Positions 2,080 through 47,155 of a stretch of 64,000 nucleotides of DNA are shown here, piece by piece. The stretch is from an uncultured delta proteobacterium. GTDB taxonomy: Bacteria; Desulfobacterota; Binatia; UBA9968. Both the position numbers and the translations under genes were made by a program. The first letter of the stretch is position 1, and each line of letters starts with the position of its first letter. The notes under the pieces are model-generated. The model was given only the letters and a program-made list of their open reading frames with translations, searched no databases and was not told the origin of the DNA. The stretch is from contig CAVUVW010000015.1 in NCBI GenBank assembly GCA_963745035.1, forward strand, positions 288,001 to 352,000, written 5' to 3'.

Positions 2080-3087
2080 TCACTTGCCCCAGAGGGATTT
2101 GTAAAAACCCTCGCTGATCAGCTCTTGCACGAGGCTGTTGTCATAGAACTGCTCGGCGGCGAGGTCTTTGGCTTTCGGATTCTTGACCGCTTCCTGTTCG
2201 AGCACAACCTGCACGCCCTCGCGTCTGACCAACGGGATCTTCTCGGTGAAATCCTGGGCGTATTTCAAGCTGCCTTCGAGCATGCCCGGGTCCTCGACTT
2301 TGGTATACTTAGCGAGAATCGTCTTCGCCGCATCACGCTGTTGAAACATCGCGTGGGTGGCTCGACCGAAGGCACGCAAGAATGCTTTGGCATCGCGGCG
2401 ATTCTCCTTCAGATAACGGCGCGACGTCGTCAGTCCGGCGATGACAAAATAGATTCCTTCATTCGCGAGATTGGCCAAAACCCGATTGCCGCGTTGTTCG
2501 GCAACGTAGGACATGGGCGAGGAGAGCGGCGCGGCGCTGATCGCGCCGCTGCTGAGAGCCGCCGCCAGTTCCGGCATGCCGCCGGATTGAATCACCGTAA
2601 CATCGCGGCCCGGTTGGAGCTTGTTTTTCTGGAGATACTCGCGGACAGCGAAGTCGGAAGACGAGCCGAGGCGGGTCACGCCGACGCGTTTCCCTTTGAG
2701 ATCTTGGACACCCGCGATCTCCGGCCGCGCAATGATGTAAAAAGCCGTCGTGTTGATCACGGCGCCCATCAAGACCAAGTCGCCGCCTTGCAGGCCGCTG
2801 CTCACGACACTCGAGCTGTTGGCGGTCGAGATCACGACCTCGCGCGCGAACATCGACTGCGCCATCGTCGTGGAGCTCGGAATGTAAACGAGTTGGACGT
2901 CCAATCCTTCCTTCTTGTAGAAGCCCATCTCCTTGCCGATCCAAAACGGCAGAAACACCGACGTGACAGAGGAATAACCAACAACGGTCGTCTGCGCGGC
3001 AACGAAGTTACACGGCAACGAGCACAGCGTTACAATGAGCAGCGCGATTCTTAGGAAATGCGCCCGTCCTTTTTGTGCGCTCATCAT
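2080..3087 (-). CDS. ABC-type substrate-binding protein, SsuA/THI5-like
   Basis: Signal peptide; GFYKKEGLDVQLV and DLKGKRVGVTRLGSSSD motifs. Confidence 0.88.
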   Translation of the reverse strand: MMSAQKGRAHFLRIALLIVTLCSLPCNFVAAQTTVVGYSSVTSVFLPFWIGKEMGFYKKEGLDVQLVYIPSSTTMAQSMFAREVVISTANSSSVVSSGLQGGDLVLMGAVINTTAFYIIARPEIAGVQDLKGKRVGVTRLGSSSDFAVREYLQKNKLQPGRDVTVIQSGGMPELAAALSSGAISAAPLSSPMSYVAEQRGNRVLANLANEGIYFVIAGLTTSRRYLKENRRDAKAFLRAFGRATHAMFQQRDAAKTILAKYTKVEDPGMLEGSLKYAQDFTEKIPLVRREGVQVVLEQEAVKNPKAKDLAAEQFYDNSLVQELISEGFYKSLWGK

Positions 3088-3185
3088 CGCTTTTCCTTAC
3101 TCTGGAGCAAAGAGATTGTCCAGGTATCCCGCGCCGCTGATCGCTTGGCTTCGGGACTTCGCCCGAATCAACGAACAAATCTTCT

Positions 3186-3214
3186 TTGACAGCTAATTCG
3201 TTCTGGACTATCTA
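3186..3214 (+). promoter_or_regulatory. Putative sigma70 promoter of the LVIVD-rhodanese-copCD operon
   Basis: TTGACA-N17-TATCTA upstream of the AAGGAGGA RBS and ATG 3282. Confidence 0.45.
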
Positions 3215-3281
3215 CGGAACAACATCGACCGTGGTGTACGAGATCGATCTAGTCATACACTGCCCGAAGGAGGATACTGAA

Positions 3282-4686
3282 ATGAATCATCTCGCAAACT
3301 TCCACCGTTCTTTAATCGGTGCATTCTTATTGCTTCTCCTTTGCACGGTGCCCGAAGTCTCCGGCCAATCGTCGATTCTCGGTGGCGCCCAAGGACGGCA
3401 ACCAAGTTATGGCGAACTGGAGAATTTTACGATTCTCTCCTACACCGATCTCGATGGCTGGGACCAAGCGGCCGAGTTTCGCATCAGCAAAGACGGCAAG
3501 CACGCCTATATTTCGAATTATCAAGGCTTCAGCATCGTCGACGTCAGCGATCCAGCTAAACCGCGCGATTATCTCCAAGGTCAAGAACCATCCCAGCGTG
3601 CAGAGCCAGTATATCGATGTGCTGGGAAATCTCTTAGTCATCAATCAGGACGGAGTGCGTGACCAAAAGACCTGGGAAGGCGGCATCCGCCTCTATGATA
3701 TCAGCGATCCGGCCAAGCCGCGTGAGACTGCATTTTTCAAAACCGACGTGTCGCCGCGCCGAGGCGTCCATGGATTTTGGCTGCACGAAGATCCCAAAGC
3801 AAGGAAAGTTCGCTTTCATTGCCACCACCAAGGAAGGCTACTACGATAATATTTTGATGATCATCGACATCAACGATCCCGCCAATCCGAAAGAAGTCGC
3901 GCGCTGGTGGTTTCCCGGGCAATGGACCGCCGGAGGCGAAAAACCGGGAGAAGATTGGGTCGAGCCGGACGGCGGCCTGCGTCAAGGGCTGCCGAAAATC
4001 TGGGTCGCGCTGCACGACATCACGACTTACAAAGACCGCGCCTACCTCGCCTATCGCGACCAAGGCGTGATCATTCTGGATATCAGCGACGTGCGCAAGC
4101 CGACCATGATCAGCCAGATCAAATGGTCGCCGCCCGAAGAGGGAAACACGCACAGCATCGGCATCGTAGTTCCGTCGCACGGCGGCAGGCCCGATATCAT
4201 TGTCGCCGGGGACGAGATTAGTCCGTCCCGAAAATTGTCCCTTCGGGTACATGCACATGATCGACGTCCGCAACGAGAAAAATCCGGTGCAGATTTCGAC
4301 ATTCAGGCTGCCCTTGAACAAGTTCTGTCCTCCTGATCGTCCCGGCCGCCGCTTTGGCATCCACGATGTCGACCGGATGATCAAAGGGGAATATCGTTTT
4401 CAGCGCCTGGGAGAATTCCGGCTTTTGGGCCGTCGACATTTCCGATCCTCACGCGCCTAAGGCCGTCGGCCATTTCGTGCCGCCGGTGTTTCGCCGAGTG
4501 AATTCGGACGCCGGCCACGCCGACGATGTTTTCGTGCACGACAACGGCTTGGTTTTCTTCAGCTCGTCCGATCCCGGCGGCGGCTTCTGGATTACGCGCT
4601 ACACGCCCGGCGTAAAAGGGACGGTGTCGTGGACGCCGGATAATAAAAATGTCACCGTGAAGTATGAGAAGCGGCAGGAGAATTGA
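3282..4686 (+). CDS. Exported LVIVD-repeat beta-propeller protein (about 4 frameshifts, probably sequencing errors)
   Basis: Repeats FSIVDVSDPAKP, IRLYDISDPAKP, LMIIDINDPANP, VIILDISDVRKP, MHMIDVRNEKNP and FWAVDISDPHAP across consecutive ORF fragments; signal peptide; strong RBS. Confidence 0.85.
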
Positions 4687-5094
4687 TTCAAGGCGGACTG
4701 CTTCCACTACTGTCGTTCGTCTCTCTTGCTCCCAGTCGCGGCTCTTGCCGGTCATGGAATTGAAGACACCATCGACATGCTTCCCGCGGAAAGGGTGAAG
4801 CAGCTCATGGATGCCGGCGAGAAGCTTGTCTTTATCGACATGCGCCCGGCGAAGGAGTATCAGCAGAATCGATTGCCGGGAGCGCGCTCGCTGCCGATCG
4901 CCGAAGTGGCGAACCGCTTTAGTGAGATCCCGAAAAGCGGCCGCGTGGTTCTCTACTGCGACTGCAAGACCTACGACATCGCCGATCGCGCCGTGTTCCT
5001 GGAGTATCGCGGCTATCGAAATATTTTCGTCATGCCGGAAGGTTATTCGGGCTGGGTGAAGCGCGGCTATCCGATCGAAACCAAATCTCGCTGA
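4683..5094 (+). CDS. Exported single-domain rhodanese with C-x-C active-site loop (start uncertain)
   Basis: FIDMRPAKEY...RLPGA...VVLYCDC...GYRNIFVMPEGYSGWVKRGYP; hydrophobic N-terminus ending ALA-GHG. The ORF track starts at 4726; a TTG at 4683 plus one indel gives a fuller signal peptide. Confidence 0.82.
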
Positions 5095-5450
5095 TGATTC
5101 GGTGGAGCGCCGCTCTATTCTTGTCGTTGCTAGCGCCGTCGCCGCTTTCGGCTCACGCCTATCTGGTCAAATCCGTCCCCGCCCAGCGCGCCGTGTTGTT
5201 CCGCGCGCCGGATAAGATCCAACTCTGGTTCAACGAACGCCTAGAGCCGCGCTATTCCTCGATCACGGTGAGCGACGCCGAGGGCAGGCCGGTGGACGCC
5301 GGCAAAGCCGAGGTCAACGCGCAAGATCCTAAGCAGCTCTCCGCGTCGATCAAATCCCTGCCTGCCGGCCGCTATTTCGTCAAATATCGCGTGCTCTCGG
5401 TCGACGGTCACATCGTTCAAGATCAATTTCCCTTCACCGTCAAACAATGA
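5094..5450 (+). CDS. copC: Periplasmic copper-binding protein CopC
   Basis: Signal peptide followed by mature N-terminal His (A-HAYLVKSVPA); C-terminal VLSVDGH motif; LWFNE. Confidence 0.92.
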   Translation: MIRWSAALFLSLLAPSPLSAHAYLVKSVPAQRAVLFRAPDKIQLWFNERLEPRYSSITVSDAEGRPVDAGKAEVNAQDPKQLSASIKSLPAGRYFVKYRVLSVDGHIVQDQFPFTVKQ

Positions 5451-7460
5451 CCGACCTTGCGGCAGTCGTTCGATTTGTTCATGTGACGGCTGCCGTGCTT
5501 TTAGCCGGTGCTTTCAGCTTCACCTTGCTCATCGCGCGGCCGGCCTTTCGGCGTGCTGGCCGATGAATCGCGCGCTGAATTCGCGGCGTTCTTGCATATT
5601 CAGTTGCGCATCGCCCGCTGGTGCTGGCTCGCGCTCGTCGCATCCGCTTTGCTTGGGCTCTGGCTGCAAACCGCCGCAGTCAGCGAGTCCGCCGATTTTC
5701 GCGGAATTCTTACTCTCCTCCGGGAAACGCAGTACGGCAACGTCTGGTCGGCGCGGCTGATCCTAGCGCTCATCTTGCCACTTATATTTCGGTTCGAGTC
5801 GAAGCGCCGCGGAAACGATGCCGGCATTCTTACCGTGGTCGGATTTATTCTAAGCGCTGCTTTGCTCGCATCGCTGGCGCTCGCAGGCCACGCCGCCGCT
5901 GCCGAAGGTAGAGCGCTGATCGCCCAGGTCTCAGTCGATGCTCTGCACCTTCTGGCCGCGGGAATCTGGCTCGGCGGTCTTCTGCCGCTTGCCCTCATGC
6001 TGCGCGAATGCAACCGCAAAAGCGCTGCTGTGACACTTGCCGTCGCCGGGGCAGCGACACAGCGTTTTTCTACTCTCGCGATGGTATGCGTCGGCACCGT
6101 AATGGTGACCGGCGCCTACAACGCGTGGACGTTGGTTGGTGGCTTTCCGCCTTTGTTTGGCACCGCTTATGGCCGGTTGCTGCTGCTGAAACTTGCTTTG
6201 CTCTTGCCACTGCTCGCTGTCGCGGCCGTGAATCGCTTGCGGTTTAAGCCGAAAGTCGTCGAAGCAAGTTCCTATCAAAGCAACTCAACGCTCGTGAGAA
6301 AACTCATCCACAACGTCTTTCTGGAAACAAGTCTCGGCGTCGGCATTTTGCTTATCGTCGGCTATATGGGTGTCACGCCGCCGGCGCGTCACGTCCAAGT
6401 GGACTGGCCGTTTTCAACGCGCTGGGATTGGAGCGTGCTGGACAAAGCGCCCAAGGCCCAAGCAGAAGTCGAGCGCGGTATTGTTTGGGCGGCGATCGGC
6501 GGCGTCGCCCTGATAACCACTCTGGTGCGGCGCCGTCGTCGGATCGTGACGGCTGTCATTGGACTCGGCGCGTTAGCGTACGCCGGCCGCGTGGCGGTCG
6601 ATGCGGTTTCCACCGACGCTTATCCGACCACCTACAAGCGTCCGGCCGTGGCCTATCAAGCGATCTCCGTCGCCAACGGCAAGCAGCTTTACGAGGATAC
6701 CAGCTGCGTCTCCTGCCACGGACCGGCCGGCTATGGCGACGGACCACTGGCGGAGGAGTTGCGCCCCAAACCCGCCGATCTCACCGCGCCTCACGCCAAC
6801 ACGCACACCGCCGGCGATCTTTTTTGGTGGGTCAGCCATGGCGTCAAAAATACCTCGATGCCGGGCTTCGAGCAGAGCCTCGGCGAAGAGGAGCGCTGGG
6901 ATCTGATCAATTTCATGCGCGCGCTATCGACCGGCGACCGCGCGCGCTCCCTCGCGCCGGTCATCGAGAACGAGCCCTGGCTCATCGCGCCGGATTTCAC
7001 TTACGTGACGAATGCCGGTGAAGCCAAGACGCTCCGAGATCACCGGGGCGCCAGAATCGTCCTGCTGATCTTGCTCGATGTGAAAGCAACGGAGCAGCGT
7101 CTGAAGGAGCTCGTTGGCGCCTTACCCGCCCTCCGATCGGGAAATGTCGAGGTGATCGTAATTCCCAATCTCATCGACCTGCAAAACGTAGCCGATCGCC
7201 TGCCGGGACTCATCGTCAGCGAAGGCATCCGGGAAATCTCCGAAACCTACAAGCTGTTCGCTCGCTCCTTCTCCGATGAAGGCCTGGTCAGCGGCACGCG
7301 CCATGTGGAATTTCTGATCGACAAACAAGGCTACATCCGCGCCCGCTGGCTGCCGGCGGAGAACGAAGGCTGGAAGAGGATTGAGATCTTACTCAAGCAA
7401 ATCGATCTGCTGCGCAAGGAAAGACCTCGCGCTCCCGCGCCCGATGAGCATGTGCATTAG
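5447..7460 (+). CDS. copD: CopD-family copper transport membrane protein fused to a cytochrome c domain and a C-terminal redoxin-like domain (frameshift near 5560)
   Basis: ATG 5447 overlaps the copC stop. CopD motifs LAGHA, LHLLAAGIWLGGL, RFS and TAYGRLLLLKL; heme motif CVSCH with distal MPGF; C-terminal APDF...FLIDKQGYIRARW. Confidence 0.85.
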
Positions 7461-7521
7461 CCTTCGATCGATCTTGATGAGCGAACCCGCGGAGGTAAGA
7501 AGAACGTTTGACAGGCAGCCG

Positions 7522-9498
7522 TCAATCGAGCAGCTTTCTCGTATCCAGGTGAATAAACCGCGCGCCGCGGTCTTTGGCGCGCTCGACCATGTCCTCGGTG
7601 CCGCCCGGCCCGTCACCGGTGGCGCCGTTCCACAATGCGATCAGGGTAAGATGATCCTGCGACAGGGCTAGCGCGTTGTGAAGCATCCACAAATTGGACC
7701 GCTGCCAAATGTTGTAATTCTTTTTCGCTCGCAACCAGCGCGGCAATCGATCCGAATCGGCGAGGATTCTTGGCGTGAGCTTTTCATAGAGCCGGTTGAA
7801 TCGCTCGACCCACTCCGGCCCGCTGTCCGCCACCGAGGCCTTGATGTAGTCTTTTTTCGGCAACACCAGATACATCTCGCTCGGAATCTTCAACTCCTCG
7901 CACACTTCGTGAAAAAGAATATCGCCGCCGGACGCGCCGCCGGTCAGGCCCACCAGCTTGCCATCGGTCTTTTCCTTCTCCCTGCTCACAGCGTCCAAAA
8001 TCATTGCCCTGGCCTGTTTTTCCTTGGCGGCGGGAAAGCGCGGCGTGGAACGGTTCGGTCCGTCGATACGATGTCCCGTAAACAGGATTACCCGCGGCGG
8101 AGGCTCTTTCGAGTAGCCGACGACCGGCGCAATCTGGTCCAGCCCTGCCTGGATATTGTCTTTCAAAACACCGAGACGCTGATAGAGCAGTAGCTGCCGT
8201 CGCACCGCGTCGCGCGCCTGCTCGGAGACGTCCGCCAGCGCCTTTCTATACGCTTGCCCCACGCGATTGGGGCGGCTCGACGTCAAGCAGAGCAGGTCGG
8301 CCGCGCTAATATCCGCCCATGCATCGGTCTTGCCTGTTCGCTGTAGCGCAAACTGCTTAGACTCGACGGCCAATCTGACGCCGGAAGCAAGATCGCCGCG
8401 TAGCTCTTTCAACGCGCGCAGTCTCTGCGCCGCTTCGTCCTTGGAGTCGAAATTGTCTTCCCAGGTCGCCGGCTGGGCTTGAGCCAGCTCCGTCAACATG
8501 GTCACCATCGCCAGGGCGTTTAAACCGGAATAAAAATGATTCCGGTCTTCGATGAAGCCTCGACGGTAAAGTTCCAAAGATTGCTCGACGAAGGGCGATG
8601 TGAGCGCGGCTTTCTGTGCCTCTTCGACCGGCGCGATCGCGGCCCAACTCCGCTCCCAGTGGTTCTTTGCGTTGCGTCCCATCAGAGCGCGGATCTCCGC
8701 CCGTTCGGCGGCTGAGCTTCCCCTGCTCTGCAGCGCGCGCTCCACCGCCTGGTCCGAGCTCACCGAGTCGCCGAGCCTTTGAAAGATCGTGGCGAGCAGC
8801 GTGTTCGCCTCGACGTCCATGTCGTCGTAATCGCGCACGGCTTGCCACGTGACCTTCGCGCCTGCCCAATCTTTCAAGGCAAATTGCCCATGGCCGACCA
8901 GACGCAGGCCGGTGGCGCGCCAATCAAAGTCGTCGATCTCCGCGGCCAAGAGCTGCAGGTCGCCGCCATGGTTCGCCGCCTCGGCCCGCTCGATTTCCTC
9001 GCGAAAATCCGCCGGCACGGCGATCACGGTATCCGGGTCCGCCGGTTGCAGGTTAGGCAGCAATTGATACACCGGGCTGTCGGCGTTTTGGGAATCCAAC
9101 GTCAGTTTGAGCGCCGCCGCCAGAAGGTCCAGAGCCCCGCGCGGGTCGTTGGCATCATAGGCCAGATACCTGTCCGTCTTGAGGTCGAAAGGTACGTCGC
9201 TTTCGTTCGCCGCGCTCGACTTGATCAGAAACGTCCGTTTGTCGCGCAGCGCATGGCGAATGCCCAGCTCATAGAAAACATTGGCGTTGTGAATCGAGAT
9301 ATCGGCAATCACCAGATCGGCGATGAGCAGCTGCTCGAACATGTCGGTGCGGATGTTTCCTTGCTGAAGAAATTCGCCCGTGGTTCCTCCGGTGAGCCCG
9401 GCCTGTTCCATCGCCGGGCGAATCAACTCTCCTTCCACTTTGTCAAAATCGATACCGCCTTTGGCGCCGAAGGGCCGCACGATAAATACGTTCAGCAT
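7522..9498 (-). CDS. Deoxyribohydrolase/NDT-like domain + TPR-S (DUF4071/MAP3K TRAF-binding-like) + C-terminal SLOG-like domain protein
   Basis: N-terminal FIVRPFG...ADLVIADISIHNANVFYELGIRHALR...PFD; middle MGRNAK, YRRGF...YSGLNA and DAWA; C-terminal LFTGHRID...PRFP, GGASGGD and LWNG..GDGPGGT..MV. Intact ORF of 658 aa from ATG 9498. Confidence 0.75.
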   Translation of the reverse strand: MLNVFIVRPFGAKGGIDFDKVEGELIRPAMEQAGLTGGTTGEFLQQGNIRTDMFEQLLIADLVIADISIHNANVFYELGIRHALRDKRTFLIKSSAANESDVPFDLKTDRYLAYDANDPRGALDLLAAALKLTLDSQNADSPVYQLLPNLQPADPDTVIAVPADFREEIERAEAANHGGDLQLLAAEIDDFDWRATGLRLVGHGQFALKDWAGAKVTWQAVRDYDDMDVEANTLLATIFQRLGDSVSSDQAVERALQSRGSSAAERAEIRALMGRNAKNHWERSWAAIAPVEEAQKAALTSPFVEQSLELYRRGFIEDRNHFYSGLNALAMVTMLTELAQAQPATWEDNFDSKDEAAQRLRALKELRGDLASGVRLAVESKQFALQRTGKTDAWADISAADLLCLTSSRPNRVGQAYRKALADVSEQARDAVRRQLLLYQRLGVLKDNIQAGLDQIAPVVGYSKEPPPRVILFTGHRIDGPNRSTPRFPAAKEKQARAMILDAVSREKEKTDGKLVGLTGGASGGDILFHEVCEELKIPSEMYLVLPKKDYIKASVADSGPEWVERFNRLYEKLTPRILADSDRLPRWLRAKKNYNIWQRSNLWMLHNALALSQDHLTLIALWNGATGDGPGGTEDMVERAKDRGARFIHLDTRKLLD

Positions 9499-9677
9499 GG
9501 ATTTCCCGTCTTGACCGGAACACTTTTCCGCAAGGCTCAAGTCTAGCGTTCTCGGGCGGTGCCCGACAAGCGCAATCTTTGCGATCGCCTTGACGTTGCG
9601 CATCTCGGGCGGCTATAAGCGGCGAGCACAACAAGTAAACCCTGGGTATGAAAGATTCCGGCCACAGGAGGTCGCTT

Positions 9678-11214
9678 ATGCGCTTCAAAGAAGCAACGAT
9701 TGATCGCCGCATGTTTCTGACAAAAAGCGCGGCCTTCGGCCTGGGCCTGTGCGCTCCGCTACCATTCACCGGACAGGCTTCGGCCGCCTCCCGCGACCGC
9801 GTCGTGGTTTTTCAGGGCGTCGGCTTGGATTCGCTCCATCCCTACGCCTACAGCGGCGGCGGCATCAGCGGCATCTGGCAGCACGTCATCGAGCCGCTGA
9901 TCGAGATGGATTTTTCGCGCAACGAGTACGCCGGCGTATTGGCCGAATCGTGGGAGTTTCAAGGTCGCAAATGGATTTTTCGCCTGCGAAAAAACGTGCG
10001 CTTCCACGACGGCTCGCCGTTTACCTCGAAGGATGTGCTGTTCTCGCTCGACCGCATGGTCAACGACAAAAAGAGCCTGCAGGCGTCCAACTTTATAGAA
10101 GTCACCGGCGTCGAGGCGCCGGACGAGCACACCGTGGTGATCTCGACCAAACAACCCAGCGCGGTCCTGCTGGAGCGGTTGAACAACCGTTTTATCGTCA
10201 GCCAGTCGGCGGTCGAGAAGAACAACAACCAGCTCGACAATTATAAAATCGGCACGGGAGCATACAAAATCACGAGCTGGCAAAGAGACGGCCTGTTGGT
10301 GCTGGCACGCAACGACGATTATTGGCGCGCCAAACCGGAGATCAAGGAAGCGATCTTCAAGACCGTAAAGGAAGAGGCGGCGCGCGTCTCCGGCCTGCTC
10401 GCCGGCCAGGCGGATGTCATCAGCAATCTGCCCATCGAAGAGATTCCCCGTGTCGCCAAGCACCCGCGCACGCGCGTGGAAAAAGTTCCCGGCTACCGCA
10501 TGTATTTTTTGGCGATGAACGTCACCCACAAGCCATTCGACAACAAGCTCGTGCGCCAGGCGTTCAACTATTCCATCGACCCGGTCGTGATCCTGAAACA
10601 TATCTATGAAGGCAACGGCTACGTCTTGAACGGCCCGCTGAGCTCCAACATGGTCGGCTACGATCCGGCGATCAAGCGCTACCCGTTCGACCCGAAAAAA
10701 GCCCGCGAGTTGCTCACCCAGGCCGGCTTTCCCAACGGTTTGGAAGTTAAGCTCCACTTGGCCCCCGATCGTCACCTCAAGGGCAAGGAAGTCTGCCAGG
10801 TAATCGCGCGCCAGCTCAACGAGAGCGGCATTAAGGTCGAATTGACGCCCCAGGAGTATCCGATTTACTGGGGCCGGGACGGCGTCAACGGCGGCAAGCT
10901 GCGCTTTCTATTATGCCGGCAGATCAGCTTATGACGCGGACACCTTCTACGATCAGTATTTTCACACCGGCGTCACCAAGCGCACCGGCTACAGCAATCC
11001 CGATCTCGACAAGCTCATCGAGGAAGAACAGCGCACCGGCGATGCGAAAAAGCGCTTGGCGGTCCTGCAGCAGGCGGGGCGGATCATCATGGAGGAGGCG
11101 CCGATCGTGCCGCTCTACACTCTGGCGGAGATTTATGGCGTGGCGCGAAACATCGTCTGGAAGGGCAACCCGAATAACGAGATCATCGTCTCGGATATGA
11201 AGATCAAGGTTTAG
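9678..11214 (+). CDS. Tat-exported ABC substrate-binding protein, family 5 (DppA/OppA/NikA-like); frameshift near 10905
   Basis: DRRMFL twin-arginine signal; LAESWE, FRLRKNVRFHDGSPFT, GTGAY and DNKLVRQA motifs; shifted-frame C-terminus QQAGRIIMEEAPIVPLY. Confidence 0.88.
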
Positions 11215-12928: not shown

Positions 12929-12966
12929 TCCGTACTTGGCGGCGCTTCACGCTTTCGGAGAGAATC

Positions 12967-14248
12967 ATGCAACTGACCTTGGCCAATCATCCGATCACAA
13001 ACATGCGCTTCGGCGCGCCGGCGCGCCTCGAAGGCACCGATCTGGTCGTCGATGCCGACGAGCTGCGCCGTATCGTGCTCGACGACGATGCCGTCGTCAG
13101 CGTCGACTTCGAAATCGTTCGTCCGGGCGAGAGCTGCCGCGCCGGGCCGATCTTCGATGTGATTGAACCGCGAGCCAAGGAGCCCGGCTACGGCGCCGAT
13201 TTCCCCGGCATTTTGGGCGCGCCGCTTACGGCGGGAATGGGCACGACACATGTTCTAAGCGGCGCGGCGGTATCGGTGCTCGCGGAAATCTCCCCGATCT
13301 TACGAGAAGCGCCACCGGGCGCGTTCTCGAAATGAGCGGCGCTCCGGCTGAGGCGAGCGCCGTATTCCGCGCTCACGCACCTGCTCGTGATTCCGCACAC
13401 CAAACCAGATTTGCCGCGCCAAGCGATTGAAAAAGCTTATCGCATCGCCGGCATTCGAGTCGCGGTGCGCTGTCGCGCGACTCGCTCTAAGACCGCGCCG
13501 CGGATCGCGGCACCAGTTCGAGCCGGTCGGGCCGGCGCGGCAAGCCGCGCAGGTCTGCCGCGCGTCGCCTACATCGGACAGATTTTTTCCCGCCAGCGCA
13601 AACCCGCCGTCGACGAGCCGATTCTTTACGGCGCCAATACCGACGGCATGCTGCCGATCATGCTCCATCCCGATGAATGGCTCGACGGCGCCATCGTGCC
13701 GTCGCTGCATTCATGGTTCGGCGGCACGGAAACTTATTTCTATCAGAATCATCCGATCATTCTCGATCTCTATCGGCGCCATCAGGCGCGCGAAATAAAT
13801 TTCGTCGGCACGGTCGCCACCATCGCCGGCTCGGACAATTTCGACCGCGAGCGCCACTGCAAGGCGGCCGCCAATCTGGTGAAATGGAATTTGCAAGCCG
13901 ACGGCGCGGTGCTGTCCAAATACGGCGGCGGCTTGCCCCACGCCGATCTGGCGGAAACTGCGCGTCTGCTCGAAGACATGGGCGATAAAAACGGCGGTGA
14001 TGGTTTCCGACGTGTCGCGCGACCGGCGAGTCGAGTCGGCGCTGCTTTTCAATGTCCCGGAAGTCAACGCCATCGTCTACAACGGCGGCAACGGCACGTA
14101 TTGGGAAGTGCCAAAAGTGGATCGCGTCGTCGCCGCGACCGCGGAATTTACCGAACTGCTGGCCGGCCCAATGAAGATCGACGCGGCCAATATCGTCGGC
14201 GTAACCAACCAGCAAGGCGCATCGAAAATGAGAGCATTGGTGTACTAG
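12967..14248 (+). CDS. Glycine/sarcosine/betaine reductase component B proprotein-like subunit (GrdE/GrdG/GrdI family); frameshifted
   Basis: IVRPGESCR...DVIEPRAK...FPG, LPRVAYI, LPIMLHPDEWLDGAI and YQNHPII..LY..H..EINFVG match the GrdE-type family. Confidence 0.82.
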
Positions 14249-14256
14249 AAGGCCAC

Positions 14257-14323
14257 GAGGCGAAAGGCGTGAGGCGTGAGTGAGGATTCATACTCATGCC
14301 TCGCGCCTCAAGCCTCATGCCTT
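14257..14323. repeat. Inverted heptamer tandem-repeat hairpin (GAGGCGT)n...(CTCRYGC-like)n
   Basis: GAGGCGA AAGGCGT GAGGCGT GAGT ... ACTCATGC CTCGCGC CTCAAGC CTCATGC, between the grdE-like stop and the grdB-like RBS. Confidence 0.7.
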
Positions 14324-14334
14324 GAGGAGCTTCC

Positions 14335-15625
14335 ATGCGAGTCGCACATTACTTGAATCAGTTCTTCGGCGGCGTCGGCGCTGAGGAGCATGCCGGCAAG
14401 GGTTTGGAGATCCACGACGGCGCGGTCGGGCCCGGCCGGCTGCTGGAACAGTTGCTCGGCGGCAGACGCGCGCGTCGCATTGACTTTTGTCTGCGGCGAT
14501 AATTTCGCGGTCGAAAATCAAGATGAGTTGACCGCCGCCGTGCTGGAAAGGCTCCGCGCCGCGAGCATTGATCTGTTCGTCGCCGGTCCATGCTTCGATG
14601 CCGGACGCTACGGCATGGCGGCCGGCGCGCTTTGCCGCGCCGTGCAAAGCGAACTCAAGATTCCCGTAATCACCGCGATGAGCGAAGAAAATCCCGGCGT
14701 CGATCTCCACCGCGACGCGCTCTACATCATCGACTCGGGAACGAATGCGGCAAAAATGCGCGACGTGCTCGGCAAGATGGCCGAGCTCTCGGCCAGAAAC
14801 TTGTCGCCAACGCGCCGATCGGTTTGCCCGGCCGAGGAAGGCTATTTGCGGCGCGGTTGGCTGCGCGATCAACTGGTCGAAAAAACCGCGGCGACCCGGC
14901 TCGTCGACATGCTGCTTGGCGAAAATGAGCGGCGCGCCGTTCGAATCCGAAATGCCGGCCACGTCGTTCGCGCCCGTGCCGATACCGGCGGCGATGCAGG
15001 ATCTATCGAAAGCCAAGGTGATGTTGATCACCGACGGCGGCCTGGTTCCCAAGGGCAATCCGGATCGGATCGAGGGCACCGCCGCGACGCGTTGGGGCGC
15101 TTACAACATCGAAGGCCGCGACGATCTGCGCGGCGAAGAATACGAAGTTTCCCACGGCGGCTACGACACGCGATTTGTTCAGGAAGATCCCGATCGGCTG
15201 GTTCCGCTCGACGCCATGCGCGAGATGGAAAAGAACGGCGTCATCGGTAAGCTCCACGATGAATTCATTTCCACCTGCGGCCGCTCCAATCCGCTGTCGA
15301 ATACGCGCCGGCTCGGCCGGGAGATCGCCGACAAGATCAAGAAGGACGGCGTCGACGCGGTCATCCTTACGTCGACGTGAGGTACCAGCACTCGCAGCGG
15401 CGCTGCGATCACGACCGAGCTGGAGAAGGCGGGCATTCCCGGTCGTGCAAATCACCTCCGCCCTGCCGATTGCCAAAATGGTCGGCTCCAACCGGGTGGT
15501 TCTCGGCGACCGGCATCGTCCACGTGACCGGCGACGCCAAGCTTCCGCCCGCCGACGAAAAGGACCTGCGGCGAAAGTTCGTCCAGCAAGCGCTCGACGC
15601 GCTGCAGTCCGACAAGACACAGTAG
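14335..15625 (+). CDS. Glycine/betaine/sarcosine/D-proline family reductase selenoprotein B (GrdB-like); Sec UGA at 15378-15380, also frameshifted
   Basis: MRVAHYLNQFFGGVG, CGDN, AGRYG, MSEENPG, LITDGGLVPKGNPDRIE, HGGYD, DPDRLVPLD, then VDAVILTST-TGA-GTSTRSGAAITTELEKAGIP continuing in frame. The UGA sits at the family's known Sec position. Confidence 0.88.
15392..15408 (+). promoter_or_regulatory. Putative bacterial SECIS element of the GrdB-like gene
   Basis: Perfect stem TCGCAGC/GCTGCGA with a GGC loop, starting 11 nt after the in-frame UGA. Confidence 0.7.
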
Positions 15626-43584: not shown

Positions 43585-45097
43585 TTAAAGGTGCGGCATA
43601 ATCGCTTGATTGATCTGATCCAACGAAGCGCGCAGCATGTCCAAGACCGCATTGGGGTAAATACCCACGATGATCACGATGGCGCCCAACGGCACCAAGG
43701 TGAACATTTCCCGGCCGTTGATTTCCGACAGCTTCAGATACTTTTCATTGGGTGGGCCGAGATAGACGCGCTGGATGGTCCAGAGCAGGTAACCCGCGGT
43801 CAGGATCACACCGCTGGCGCCCAGGATCGTCAAGACCGGATATTTCTGCCAGGTGCCGAGCAAAACCAGGATTTCCGAGATGAAGCCGGAAAGCCCGGGC
43901 AAACCCATGGAGGCAAAAAAGGCCAGGGCGGTCACACCCGTGTAGACCGGCATAATCGCCGCGAGGCCGCCGAAGCCGTCAATCTCACGGTGATGCGCCC
44001 GGTCGTAGATGACCCCGACCAAAAGGAAGAGCATGCCGGTGATCGTGCCATGATTGAACATCTGCAGCACGGCGCCGTTGATTCCCTGGGTGGTGAAGCT
44101 CGCCATGCCGAGCATGACATAGCCCATATGGCTCACGCTCGAATAAGCGACCAACTTCTTGAGGTCTTTTTGCGCCATGGCGCAAAGAGCGCCGTAAATG
44201 ATGTTCCATACGCCGAGAGCGCCCAAAAACCAAAACGCCAGGTCCGCGGTCGCCGCCGGCAGCATCGGAAAATTGACGCGCAGAATGCCGTACGTGCCCA
44301 TCTTCAAAAGCACGCCGGCGAGAATGACCGAGATAGCGGTCGGCGCCTCGACGTGGGCATCCGGCAGCCAGGTATGAAACGGAAACGCCGGTATCTTGAT
44401 CGCAAAGCCGATGAACATGCGCCATCCAGACCGCGTGCTGGAAACCCCAGCCGAGCTGATTGAACGGCCACATCGGCAGCGGCTCGGTGCCGAATTTGCC
44501 CGCCTGCGCCATCATGACCGTCATGTCGAAGGTGTGCGGTTCAACCGAAAAATACAGCGCGAGGATGGAGATCAGCATGAAAGCGCTGCCGAAAAACGTG
44601 TAGAGAAAGAACTTGATCGCGGCGTACTCGCGCCGCGGCCCGCCCCATATGCCGATCAGGAAGTACATGGGCAGCAGCATCACTTCCCAGAAAACAAAGA
44701 ACAGGAAAAAATCGAGGGCGCAGAAAACTCCCATCATGCCGGCGTCGAGCATGAGAAACAGCGCGAAGTAGCCTTTGACCGCTTTATCGATGCCAAAAGA
44801 AGCGAAGATGCAGAGAAAGCTCAACAGCGCGGTCAACAAAACCATGGAGATGCTGAGGCCGTCGACGCCCATGTAGTAGCTGATGTTGAAGGCGGGAATC
44901 CATTGATACTTCTCGACGAACTGAAAACCTGCTTGCTTGCGATCAAAGTTGGCGAACAGCCAGACTGCCATCAAGAGCGGCGGCACGGTCGCGGCGGCGG
45001 AGACCCAACGAATCAGCTTGGCGTTGTTCGGCAGCGCCAGCACGATCGCCGCTCCAGCGACCGGAATAAAGGTCATGTAGGTGAGCAAGTTTTCCAT
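43585..45097 (-). CDS. nuoM: NADH-quinone oxidoreductase subunit M (frameshift near 44420)
   Basis: GVDGLS, FWEVMLLPMY, FPFHTWLPDAHVEAP and AYSSVSHMG. Confidence 0.95.
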
Positions 45098-45118
45098 TTC
45101 CGAGATTCTCCCTAGAAA

Positions 45119-47155
45119 TCAGCTCCAGTAGCGGAGCTTGACAATGATCGCCAGCGCCACGGCGATCAAAATCCCATAAAGATAGCTGTTGATATTGCCG
45201 GTCTGAACTCGGCGAAACTTGTTGCCGGCCCAAAACGTGATGTTGGCAACCGCGTTGACGATGCCGTCGATGATGTAAGCATCGAACAGGCCGTTCAACC
45301 AGGAAATGAATCGGGTCACGCTCGCCGAGCCATTGACGATGCCGTCGATGACGTAGGCATCGAACGCGGACAAAACTTTGGCGAGCAGCAAGGAGCCGTT
45401 GACGAACAGAACCTGATAAATCTCGTCGACATACCACTTGCGGTCGAACAGCCGATAAAAAAACCCGCCCGCAAGATTGGCGAATACTGCCGGCGAAATG
45501 CTCTCGCGCCGGTACATGAGGTAGGCGACGAAGGCGCCGCAGCGATGCCACGCCGACGGAGAGTGCCATCAAACCCCATTCCAAAGCATGGGAGCCGTGG
45601 TGCTCTTCGTGATGAATCACCGGCTCGAGCCAATGCGCGAACTGGCTGCCGCCCAACACCGCCGGCAGGCCGATGAATCCGGCGAGCACAGCGCCGGCCG
45701 CCAAGCACGACAAGCGGCATCGTCATCACCGACGGCGATTCATGGAGGTGTTCCTGGGTATGATGGTCGGCGCGGCAGTCGCCGTAGAAGGTCATAAAGA
45801 GCTGGCGGAACATGTAGAACGCGGTCATGCCGGCACCGCACAGGGCAAAGAACCAGATTTCCCAGTGGTGACCGGAAGCGGCGAGCCAGAGAATCTCGTC
45901 CTTGGAAAAGAACCCCGCGAACGGCGGGAAGCCGGCAATGGCGAGCACAGAAATAAAAAACGTCGCAAAAGTGATCGGCATCCATGTCTTGAGCCCGCCC
46001 ATTTTGCGCATGTCCTGCTCATGATGCATGGCGTGGATCACGCTGCCGGAGCCGAGGAACAAGCAGGCTTTGAAGAACGCGTGGGTCATCAAATGAAAAA
46101 CCGCCGCGGCATAGCCGCCGACGCCGACGCCGATAAACATGTAGCCGAGCTGGCTGACCGTGGAATAGGCTAGGACTTTCTTGATGTCGTACTGGGTGAG
46201 CGCAATCGTTGCGGCGACCAGCGCGGTGGCGACGCCGATGACGGCGATCACATTCAAAGTGTCCGGCGCCATGGAAAAGAAAACGTTCATGCGCGCGGTC
46301 ATGTAAACGCCGGCGGTCACCATGGTGGCGGCATGGATGAGCGCGCTCACCGGCGTCGGCCCGGCCATGGCGTCGGGAAGCCAGACAAACAAGCGGAATC
46401 TGCGCCGATTTACCAGTCGCGCCGACAAAGAGGAACAGGGTCGCCACGGTCGCCACCGGCATGCCCCAGATCATCATGTCCTTGATCGACGGCGCCCATT
46501 TCACCATATCGCGAAACGTCAAGGTGCCGTGCCCCTGCGCGTCGAGCGACCAGAACAGCAAAAACATGCCGAGGACGAAACCGAAGTCGCCGACCCGGTT
46601 GACGATAAAAGCTTTATTGCCGGCGCGAGCGTTGGCATGGTCGGTGTACCAAAAGCCGATCAGCGCGTAGGAGCACAAACCGACGCCCTCCCAGCCGACA
46701 AACAACAGCAGCAGGCTGTCGCCCAATACCAAGGTCAGCATGGCCGCGGTGAACAAATTGAGATAGGCGAAGAAGCGCCAGAACGCCTTGTCGTCGTGCA
46801 TGTAGCCGGTGGCGTAGATGTGAATCAAGCCGCCGATGCCGGTGACGATGAGGATCATGACGGCCGAGAGCGGGTCGACCATGAAGGCCATGTCGACCTT
46901 CAGCGAGCCGAGATCGATCCAGCGATAGAGATTATCGATGAGAAAGCGCTTTTCCGGTTCGAGACCGACGAGAATGAAGAACGCCCAAACCGACAGACCG
47001 AAGGCGATCACCACCGGCGCGCACGCGATCAGTCCGATGGCGCCTTTGCCCATGCTCTTCTGGATCTTCGCGCCTAATAGGCCGTTAACGATCGCGCCGA
47101 GCAACGGCAAGAAAACGATCCAGCGAATAAAATCTGTCTGTATCGGGTTTTCCAT
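45119..47155 (-). CDS. nuoL: NADH-quinone oxidoreductase subunit L (about 3 frameshifts)
   Basis: [46 protein letters not shown] and QTGNINSY. Confidence 0.93.

Follow-up and report, generated by a model that had tools for sequence, protein, structure and literature searches.

A 64,000-nucleotide stretch of DNA from an uncultured Binatia bacterium (contig CAVUVW010000015.1, positions 288,001 to 352,000; hereafter the window) carries four overlapping envelope genes at positions 3282-7460, which encode an LVIVD propeller, a rhodanese with a CxC motif, CopC, and a CopD protein fused to a cytochrome c and a thioredoxin-like domain. The propeller is very probably a Sec-exported metalloenzyme with a His/carboxylate centre, related to the phosphotriesterase of Sphingobium sp. 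TCM1 (Sb-PTE). It forms a tight unit with the rhodanese, and copC and copD are frequent, clade-restricted and dispensable companions of this pair. We propose that rhodanese, CopC and CopD-cytochrome c would form a kit shared by several secreted enzymes and, more tentatively, that copper from this kit serves the propeller and its rhodanese. All functional statements below rest on homology and gene neighbourhood.

The case for a metalloenzyme begins with the propeller family. Fragments of the window copy score 21.5 and 38.1 bits with Pfam LVIVD (PF08309; cut-off 20.2 bits), and intact orthologues reach 65.5 and 76.5 bits. The family is large: of 7671 candidates scored, 3372 are relatives at E<=1e-5, and nearly all of those that carry a name are called 'hypothetical'. 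The AlphaFold model of the orthologue from genome G017, whose residue numbering we use for the propeller throughout, is seven-bladed (pLDDT 87.4, pTM 0.85), and its top Foldseek match is Sb-PTE (5hrm; E 2.9e-17, template-modelling (TM) score 0.60), with generic WD40 proteins at about 1e-9. When the family profile is compared with solved structures, Sb-PTE (5hrm/5ioj) is the sole match (E 1e-19). It also gives the longest alignment with VIA-align (360 residues, 21% identity, Z 29.4), where generic seven-bladed propellers reach higher Z values (~31).

Among the residues that never vary in a 39-member alignment, with members as low as 37% in identity, are H175, H256, H302, D322, E323, C330, C360, H372 and D426. 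The profile alignment places H175, H302, E323, C330 and C360 on His258, His389, Glu407, Cys411 and Cys443 of 5ioj (as counted from the alignment), and all five are also present in the window copy. We take His258, His389 and Glu407 to be ligands of the binuclear manganese centre of Sb-PTE and Cys411-Cys443 to be a disulfide, roles that were reportedly described by Mabanglo and colleagues in 2016; the PDB title of 5ioj itself names 'the binuclear manganese center'. Further ligands of Sb-PTE are presumably His317, His475 and a bridging Glu201, and the invariant H256 and H372 are candidates for the two His, but they lie in poorly aligned or unaligned stretches. Because the propeller is homologous to a binuclear-metal hydrolase with invariant aligned ligands, we regard it as very probably a metal-binding enzyme of Sb-PTE type. 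The two proteins share the seven-bladed fold, the aligned ligands and the Cys pair, but their identity is only 18-21%, and we know of no rhodanese or copCD partner of Sb-PTE.

The initial annotation had cast the LVIVD protein as the client metalloenzyme of a copper maturation kit and had pointed to copper-dependent propellers as precedents. The metalloenzyme part of this claim gains from the Sb-PTE homology and the invariant ligands, but copper as the metal does not, the solved relative being a manganese enzyme. Kinship with the known copper propellers is not borne out either. The SBP56 (methanethiol oxidase) family of Pfam gives 22.3-22.5 bits over a 20-residue stretch (cut-off 34), and neither N2O reductase nor thiocyanate dehydrogenase is among the matches listed by Foldseek or VIA for the propeller model. 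These comparisons suggest a hydrolase-type metalloenzyme rather than a known copper propeller. Membership of the NCBIfam family choice_anch_B was rejected (33.9 bits, cut-off 100), and the ESM Atlas returned solely LVIVD and 'choice-of-anchor B' clusters and thus no functional lead. We found no description of an LVIVD protein with a link to copper in the literature searched; an LVIVD protein, cadB1, is listed there in a chloranilic-acid degradation cluster, without biochemistry.

The partner of the propeller is a single-domain, periplasmic, rhodanese-like protein (PF00581; 55 bits, cut-off 22.2). Across 16 sequences, including two paralogues, a His (H31) in a G-H-G motif just past the signal peptide and the two Cys of a Y-C-x-C motif (C99, C101) are invariant, the latter motif reading LYCDC in the window. 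Canonical rhodaneses have a six-residue active-site loop after the catalytic Cys, of the C-X5-R/T type. Here, two invariant Cys stand in the loop (YC[DATE]C-K/P-…) and position +6 is neither Arg nor Thr, which weakens the sulfur part of the earlier idea that the rhodanese gives sulfur or redox input. We infer from this motif that the protein may act less as a classical sulfurtransferase than as a helper in redox chemistry or metal handling. Its best NCBIfam match is the rhodanese-related (seleno)protein family NF041203, 'LYCAU' (E 3.4e-13). By our own reading of that name, the spacing LYC-A-U matches LYCDC, but the window rhodanese falls below the cut-off (49 bits vs 115) and is not a member, has Cys in place of selenocysteine, and is periplasmic. 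A complex prediction for propeller and rhodanese scored 0.01 against a mark of 0.32 and speaks neither for nor against the pairing.

The link between the two genes is instead seen in their neighbourhoods. Neighbouring genes were scored with our own hidden Markov models (HMMs) built from the operon proteins; these derive from close sequences, so divergent CopC and CopD may escape them, and the locus counts are raw, with related genomes not being independent. Among 34 related loci on contigs of species-representative genomes, a rhodanese gene directly follows the propeller gene in 14 and the full operon is present in 9. One locus at 72% identity (L019) has neither rhodanese nor copCD, and 18 more distant genome loci have none of the kit genes. 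On metagenome contigs (80 loci, counted solely where downstream DNA sufficed), the contrast between identity classes is sharp: at 65% identity or more, the rhodanese is present in 28/30, CopC in 13/18 (two of them remnants) and CopD in 5/10, whereas the rhodanese drops to 1/8 at 50-64% and to 0/23 at 30-49%, the class in which copCD is likewise absent (0/23). Because of these co-occurrence counts, we call the pair the tight unit and copCD its dispensable companion; the joint conservation of LVIVD, rhodanese and copCD that the initial annotation had put forward as a check is confined to the close clade. The propeller family is patchy in distribution. Of 251 genomes sampled evenly across the order to which one Burkholderiales-labelled metagenome-assembled genome belongs, the centre genome alone has a full-length match at E<=1e-100, so that this sample added no gene contexts. 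The source genome of the window has one kit, that of the window itself, and five distant LVIVD paralogues elsewhere without a kit.

The two remaining proteins match copper-handling families. CopC scores 85 bits with PF04234 (cut-off 23.3), and an orthologue scores 81 with NCBIfam copper_CopC, below the cut-off of 95. The mature N-terminus is His (…LSA before the cleavage point, HAYLV after it), a D-G-H motif lies near the C-terminus (…VDGHIV…), and the mature part is free of Met. On these features, CopC is predicted to be a periplasmic Cu(II)-binding protein of the His-Asp-His type (class C0-2), lacking a Met-rich Cu(I) site; His-Asp-His is the site that the accessible part of PMC8689200 describes for the CopC family, as in YobA. 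The CopD domain reaches 83.8 bits with PF05425 (cut-off 32.1), an orthologue falling just below the NCBIfam copper_CopD cut-off (186 vs 195). The domain that follows is a class I cytochrome c (PF00034, 51.7 bits) with CxxCH and the Met of AMPGF, in which C34, C37, H38 and M86 are invariant, as are two more His in the alignment of the fusions.

The C-terminal part of the fusion, modelled by AlphaFold together with the cytochrome c (pLDDT 74), adopts a thioredoxin fold. Its top Foldseek matches are peroxiredoxins, Bcp1, ResA and TlpA (E 3e-6 to 6e-6), with a TM score normalised to the target of about 0.7 against ResA and Bcp1, and Pfam AhpC-TSA gives 20 bits (cut-off 26). Although it shares this fold with TlpA/ResA thioredoxins and peroxiredoxins, the domain has no CxxC, no peroxidatic Cys and indeed no Cys at all in any of 22 sequences, and thus cannot carry out thiol-disulfide exchange on its own. 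Invariant across the same 22 sequences are, instead, His234 and a terminal H-x-H (…APAPDEHVH). For TlpA, there is a structure of its complex with the copper chaperone ScoI (title of 4txo). Pairing of a His-Asp-His CopC with a CopD membrane protein is also seen in YobA-YebZ-YebY of E. coli (PMC8689200, accessible part). CopC/CopD systems further include YcnJ/YcnI of B. subtilis, and fusions among them are common, according to the available parts of PMC8689200, PMC12362106, PMC13344008 and PMC11923076. The window CopD differs from YobA-YebZ-YebY and YcnJ/YcnI in its fusion to a cytochrome c and to a thioredoxin fold that has no Cys and ends in H-x-H, and in that CopD proteins of this type are embedded in clusters of enzyme and rhodanese genes. 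We found no earlier description of the CopD-cytochrome c-thioredoxin-like architecture in the literature searched.

This embedding extends beyond the propeller. The CopD fusion is present in 21/81 sampled genomes of the family (a tally that includes G045). Among eleven CopD-fusion loci, three have the propeller operon, six have Amidohydro_3-like genes, and two are uninformative, the contig ending too soon. In the six (L063-L065, L067, L069, L071), genes for a secreted Amidohydro_3-like protein and a CxC rhodanese stand in this order as pairs, of which up to five lie in tandem around one CopC and one CopD-cytochrome c-thioredoxin-like fusion. At two further loci with such clusters (L055, L056), Amidohydro_3 (Pfam E 7e-43 and 4e-44), rhodaneses and signal peptides were confirmed beside the kit. 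A different arrangement is seen at L058 (G008:C9, 4616-9269), where the gene order is bicupin, cytochrome b561-CopC fusion, CopD-cytochrome c fusion; an electron-transfer module is thereby joined to CopC/CopD in a second manner. The bicupin that adjoins the kit in G008 has at least ten paralogues in G000, spread over contigs C5, C13, C14, C16, C17 and C19. Since the same kit accompanies other secreted metalloenzymes, we infer a kit-plus-client logic, in which rhodanese, CopC and CopD-cytochrome c would be shared among several pairs of secreted enzyme and rhodanese. Again, the literature searched held no description of CxC rhodaneses paired one-to-one with secreted hydrolase-fold enzymes.

In the mechanism that we propose, the four genes of this Binatia-type soil bacterium would form a single periplasmic operon with coupled translation, and the propeller would work as an obligate pair with the adjoining CxC rhodanese. 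CopC would capture Cu(II), the cytochrome c domain of the CopD fusion would supply the electron for reduction to Cu(I), and CopD, the thioredoxin-like domain and the rhodanese would then hand the copper to the enzyme or take it into the cell. The pair would thus be a client of the kit, which would supply or manage copper for it in the periplasm. That this copper serves the pair, as a cofactor, is a plausible but tentative reading. The logic of the operon resembles that of thiocyanate dehydrogenase (TcDH) of Thioalkalivibrio, a periplasmic copper propeller encoded next to copC and copD, which are co-induced and proposed as copper suppliers in the accessible part of PMC5744179. TcDH nevertheless appears not to be related to the window propeller, being absent from the matches listed by Foldseek and VIA, and the same part of PMC5744179 gives its copCD as divergent and unfused and describes no rhodanese partner. 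The earlier picture of a client enzyme with its maturation kit is thus upheld in the clade-conserved link and in the reuse of the kit beside other enzymes, and not in the identity of the metal or in the generality of copCD, which is clade-restricted.

Several observations weigh against copper delivery to the pair. The nearest solved relative, Sb-PTE, binds manganese, the ligand set of the propeller (four His plus carboxylates) is of the hydrolytic binuclear type, and the column aligned with the presumed bridging Glu201 is variable in the family, so this position of Sb-PTE is not conserved. To our knowledge, the Amidohydro_3 superfamily does not use copper. The pair also occurs without copCD: it stands alone in L014 and L017 despite at least 6 kb of downstream DNA and in L079 and L082 despite long flanks, and in three loci from the same species as G017 (L011, L072, L073), it is followed by a copC remnant of 26-39 codons and then a solute-binding-protein gene, as though copC/copD had recently been deleted. 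(A further kit is present in G017 on a separate contig, L055.) Most distant propeller homologues have no copper genes nearby. Finally, in the accessible part of PMC8689200, CopD is held to be a putative importer that brings copper into the cytoplasm and not a protein that donates it in the periplasm.

The manganese-binding relative with its conserved aligned ligands and the importer role of CopD lend weight to a different explanation, which we consider somewhat unlikely: that the propeller and the Amidohydro_3 proteins are ordinary Mn/Zn/Fe periplasmic hydrolases that receive no copper from the kit, their place next to it reflecting an upstream step, protection or simply shared regulation. Acting upstream, the pairs would release copper from organic or sulfur-bound complexes for uptake by CopC/CopD; under protection, the kit would keep copper off enzymes prone to mis-metallation. 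The HxH motifs of the Amidohydro_3 partners are intact, as expected of ordinary hydrolases, the position next to the rhodanese is taken by either of two unrelated hydrolase folds, and the propeller gene adjoins Amidohydro_3 genes without the kit at five loci (L031, L038, L116, L133, L140). Yet no substrate can be named for such hydrolases, and the provision of one rhodanese per hydrolase suggests a partnership closer than shared regulation needs. Nor does this explanation account for homologues found among multicopper oxidase, CusF and copper ATPase genes, which are described below. Extending copper delivery by the kit to both unrelated folds, the Sb-PTE-like LVIVD propeller and Amidohydro_3, each with a dedicated rhodanese, is unlikely in our view. 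If true, it would imply copper-dependent members of superfamilies so far known only with Mn, Zn or Fe, as well as a new class of rhodanese-fold copper chaperone.

More distant propeller homologues, at 39-48% identity, bring in copper from another side. In 14 loci, these proteins begin with a classical twin-arginine (Tat) leader (MNRRRFLQ…), whereas RRxFL is found in 0/14 members of the rhodanese clade (RRSLI in two, RRALL in one). The Tat-type propellers (L032-L040, L108-L120) have a near-identical leader ending in …GAGWAFH[DN]D, in which cleavage after Ala would make His the second mature residue. At L033, the Tat-type propeller gene lies in a copper island, between genes for a cytochrome c, a redoxin, a multicopper oxidase and a DsbD-like membrane protein and one for a MerR regulator, beyond which are a pyridine-nucleotide disulfide oxidoreductase and a P1B ATPase with an HMA domain. 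The island at L040 comprises a multicopper oxidase, a cupredoxin, CusF, an AraC regulator, the Tat-type propeller and a P1B ATPase (YHS + HMBD). Because these homologues sit in copper islands, the link of the family to copper may be independent of copCD.

The same islands raise the prospect that the propeller itself has a task in copper homeostasis or resistance, such as binding or transforming copper in the periplasm, and is not an enzyme of some other pathway with a copper cofactor. The propeller gene adjoins a MerR regulator gene at L032 and L149 as well as L033, and outer-membrane and CusB-like efflux genes at L031, L108 and L117. In addition, copper resistance is the role in which CopC/CopD were originally described, and Pfam describes them likewise. 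We nonetheless hold this role to be improbable: most of the distant loci examined lack such contexts, catalysis is favoured by the invariant hydrolase-like site and the disulfide, and the Binatia operon has no efflux-pump or oxidase gene beside it. Alphaproteobacterial members (L025-L027, L029, L098, L105, L109) show a different conserved three-gene neighbourhood after the propeller, consisting of a secreted protein of about 130 residues that is weakly cupredoxin-like (23 bits, cut-off 27) and has H-x-H motifs, a membrane protein of about 510 residues whose mature end begins with His (HA[FY]GERYDLP), and a metallo-beta-lactamase-fold protein. Equating the 510-residue protein with CopD and the cupredoxin-like protein with CopC was rejected, the hhalign probability being below 1% in both cases.

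Three of the four operon genes are not open frames in the deposited sequence, which has seven single-base insertions in total. The initial annotation, though right about the genes and their domains, overlooked these breaks. Four lie in the LVIVD gene (near 3566, 3792, 4217 and 4390; frame path 0>1>2>0>1), two shift the leader of the rhodanese (near 4694 and 4721), and one near 5555/5556 puts the first ~36 codons of copD out of frame with the rest (tblastn frames 2/3). Read through its breaks, the LVIVD gene encodes about 467 residues. In genomes of the same genus, each orthologue is one open frame, 478-513 residues long when counted from the first possible start codon, and the window pieces are collinear with these frames (66-95% identity per segment; tblastn frames 3/1/2/3/1), with one surplus window base at every break of this gene in the DNA alignment.

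These bases were compared with contigs of four public runs from four different studies (soil, rhizosphere and winery metagenomes, and one run without an organism label), aligned to 3200-7500. The contigs are low-depth consensus sequences (depth 2.4-14) that all differ from the window, with 0.71 as the highest share of words. The surplus base is absent from every covering run, namely 2/2 each at 3566 and 3792, and 3/3 each at 4217, 4390, 4694, 4721 and 5555/5556. In the operon leader, one run's contig only (X6) misses one base at each of 3236 and 3239. Beyond 5556, the sole length difference among the runs is an in-frame GCT at 6023 in copD; found in two other runs, it is a codon-length polymorphism between strains. 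In the corrected frames, 29/40 listed strain differences are synonymous (28 further ones are unlisted), including 15/19 in the LVIVD gene, whose window copy keeps every invariant residue of its family. Moreover, 4/9 other window genes compared with orthologues from short-read-style assemblies carry six further frame breaks (Table 1), although this fraction is no error rate, as the nine were picked for their suspicious look. The genome assembly (28 contigs, the largest of 1.97 Mb) seems to carry indel errors in patches, and other long-contig assemblies of relatives are broken at different places in the same genes (L003, L013, L029, L030, L034, L062, L094, L119).

Since near-identical contigs of other studies do not have any of the seven bases, and since substitutions are mostly synonymous, invariant residues are kept and other genes of the window are broken too, the operon is most likely intact in the living organism, the breaks being insertion errors of a long-read assembly. 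A programmed frameshift or another genetic code was rejected, as these are simple surplus bases in unrelated sequence contexts that are absent from near-identical DNA. Real insertions in an operon that is truly decaying into pseudogenes in this strain are very improbable. It is true that the insertions stand in the deposited sequence, that all seven changes are insertions clustered within 2 kb, and that no run has the exact window sequence; but decay would have to be reconciled with the absence of other disabling changes, with at least six breaks in four other genes of the same window, and with relatives' assemblies that are broken at other positions. In practice, frame breaks in this assembly should not be taken for pseudogenes.

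With the breaks set aside, the four overlapping envelope genes first proposed for this stretch are confirmed in their domains and coordinates by Pfam matches and by the junctions read from the sequence (Table 1). The rhodanese gene starts (ATG at 4664) within the LVIVD gene and overlaps it by 23 nt (LVIVD stop at 4684-4686), the rhodanese stop (5092-5094) and the CopC start have one base in common in TGATG at 5092-5096, and in ATGA the copD start (5447) and the copC stop overlap. A strong ribosome-binding site, with the Shine-Dalgarno sequence GAAGGAGGA at 3266-3274, precedes the LVIVD start. The single promoter originally placed ahead of the genes has no counterpart in the scans: the consensus scan detects no sigma-70-like site in the leader at 3088-3281, where promoter and terminator scans gave nothing useful, and across 2900-7800 it finds 4 such sites against 2.1 expected. 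Downstream, a 693-residue protein with a TPR-S sensor domain is encoded on the minus strand (7522-9603), between the operon and a family-5 solute-binding-protein gene (9648-10934); in relatives L002 and L009, unlike in the window, the binding-protein gene directly follows the operon.

Table 1. Operon genes and domains, flanking features and further frame-broken genes, in window coordinates
Feature	Position	Strand	Basis or remark
LVIVD propeller gene	3282-4686	+	three-frame translation, Pfam LVIVD, tblastn and DNA alignment vs orthologues
Rhodanese gene	4664-5094	+	Pfam Rhodanese; periplasmic, single-domain
copC	5094-5450	+	Pfam CopC
copD fusion gene (CopD, cytochrome c, thioredoxin fold)	5447-7460	+	
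CopD membrane domain of fusion	5447-6395	+	Pfam CopD
Mono-haem cytochrome c domain of fusion	6591-6902	+	Pfam Cytochrom_C; coordinates from our own HMM run on the genome
C-terminal thioredoxin-fold domain of fusion	6918-7460	+	AlphaFold model, Foldseek
Intergenic leader of operon	3088-3281	+	between divergent NMT1-like gene and LVIVD start
NMT1-like binding-protein gene, divergent, upstream of operon	2080-3087	minus	Pfam
Frame-broken gene	12964-14245		break near 13985
Frame-broken gene	14290-15368		breaks near 14445 and 14918
Frame-broken gene	43588-45100		break near 44419
Frame-broken gene	45122-47155		breaks near 45500 and 46391

Should the hydrolases work ahead of CopC, the system would serve to draw copper out of organic complexes in soil. 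Should the pair be a client of the kit, as we propose, a function would be found for a large uncharacterised family of secreted LVIVD propellers and a role for periplasmic CxC rhodaneses. The CopD fusion would then represent a new architecture in which electron input, through the cytochrome c, is built into a copper transporter, and the operon would bear on how periplasmic enzymes are metallated and on the actual job of CopC/CopD.

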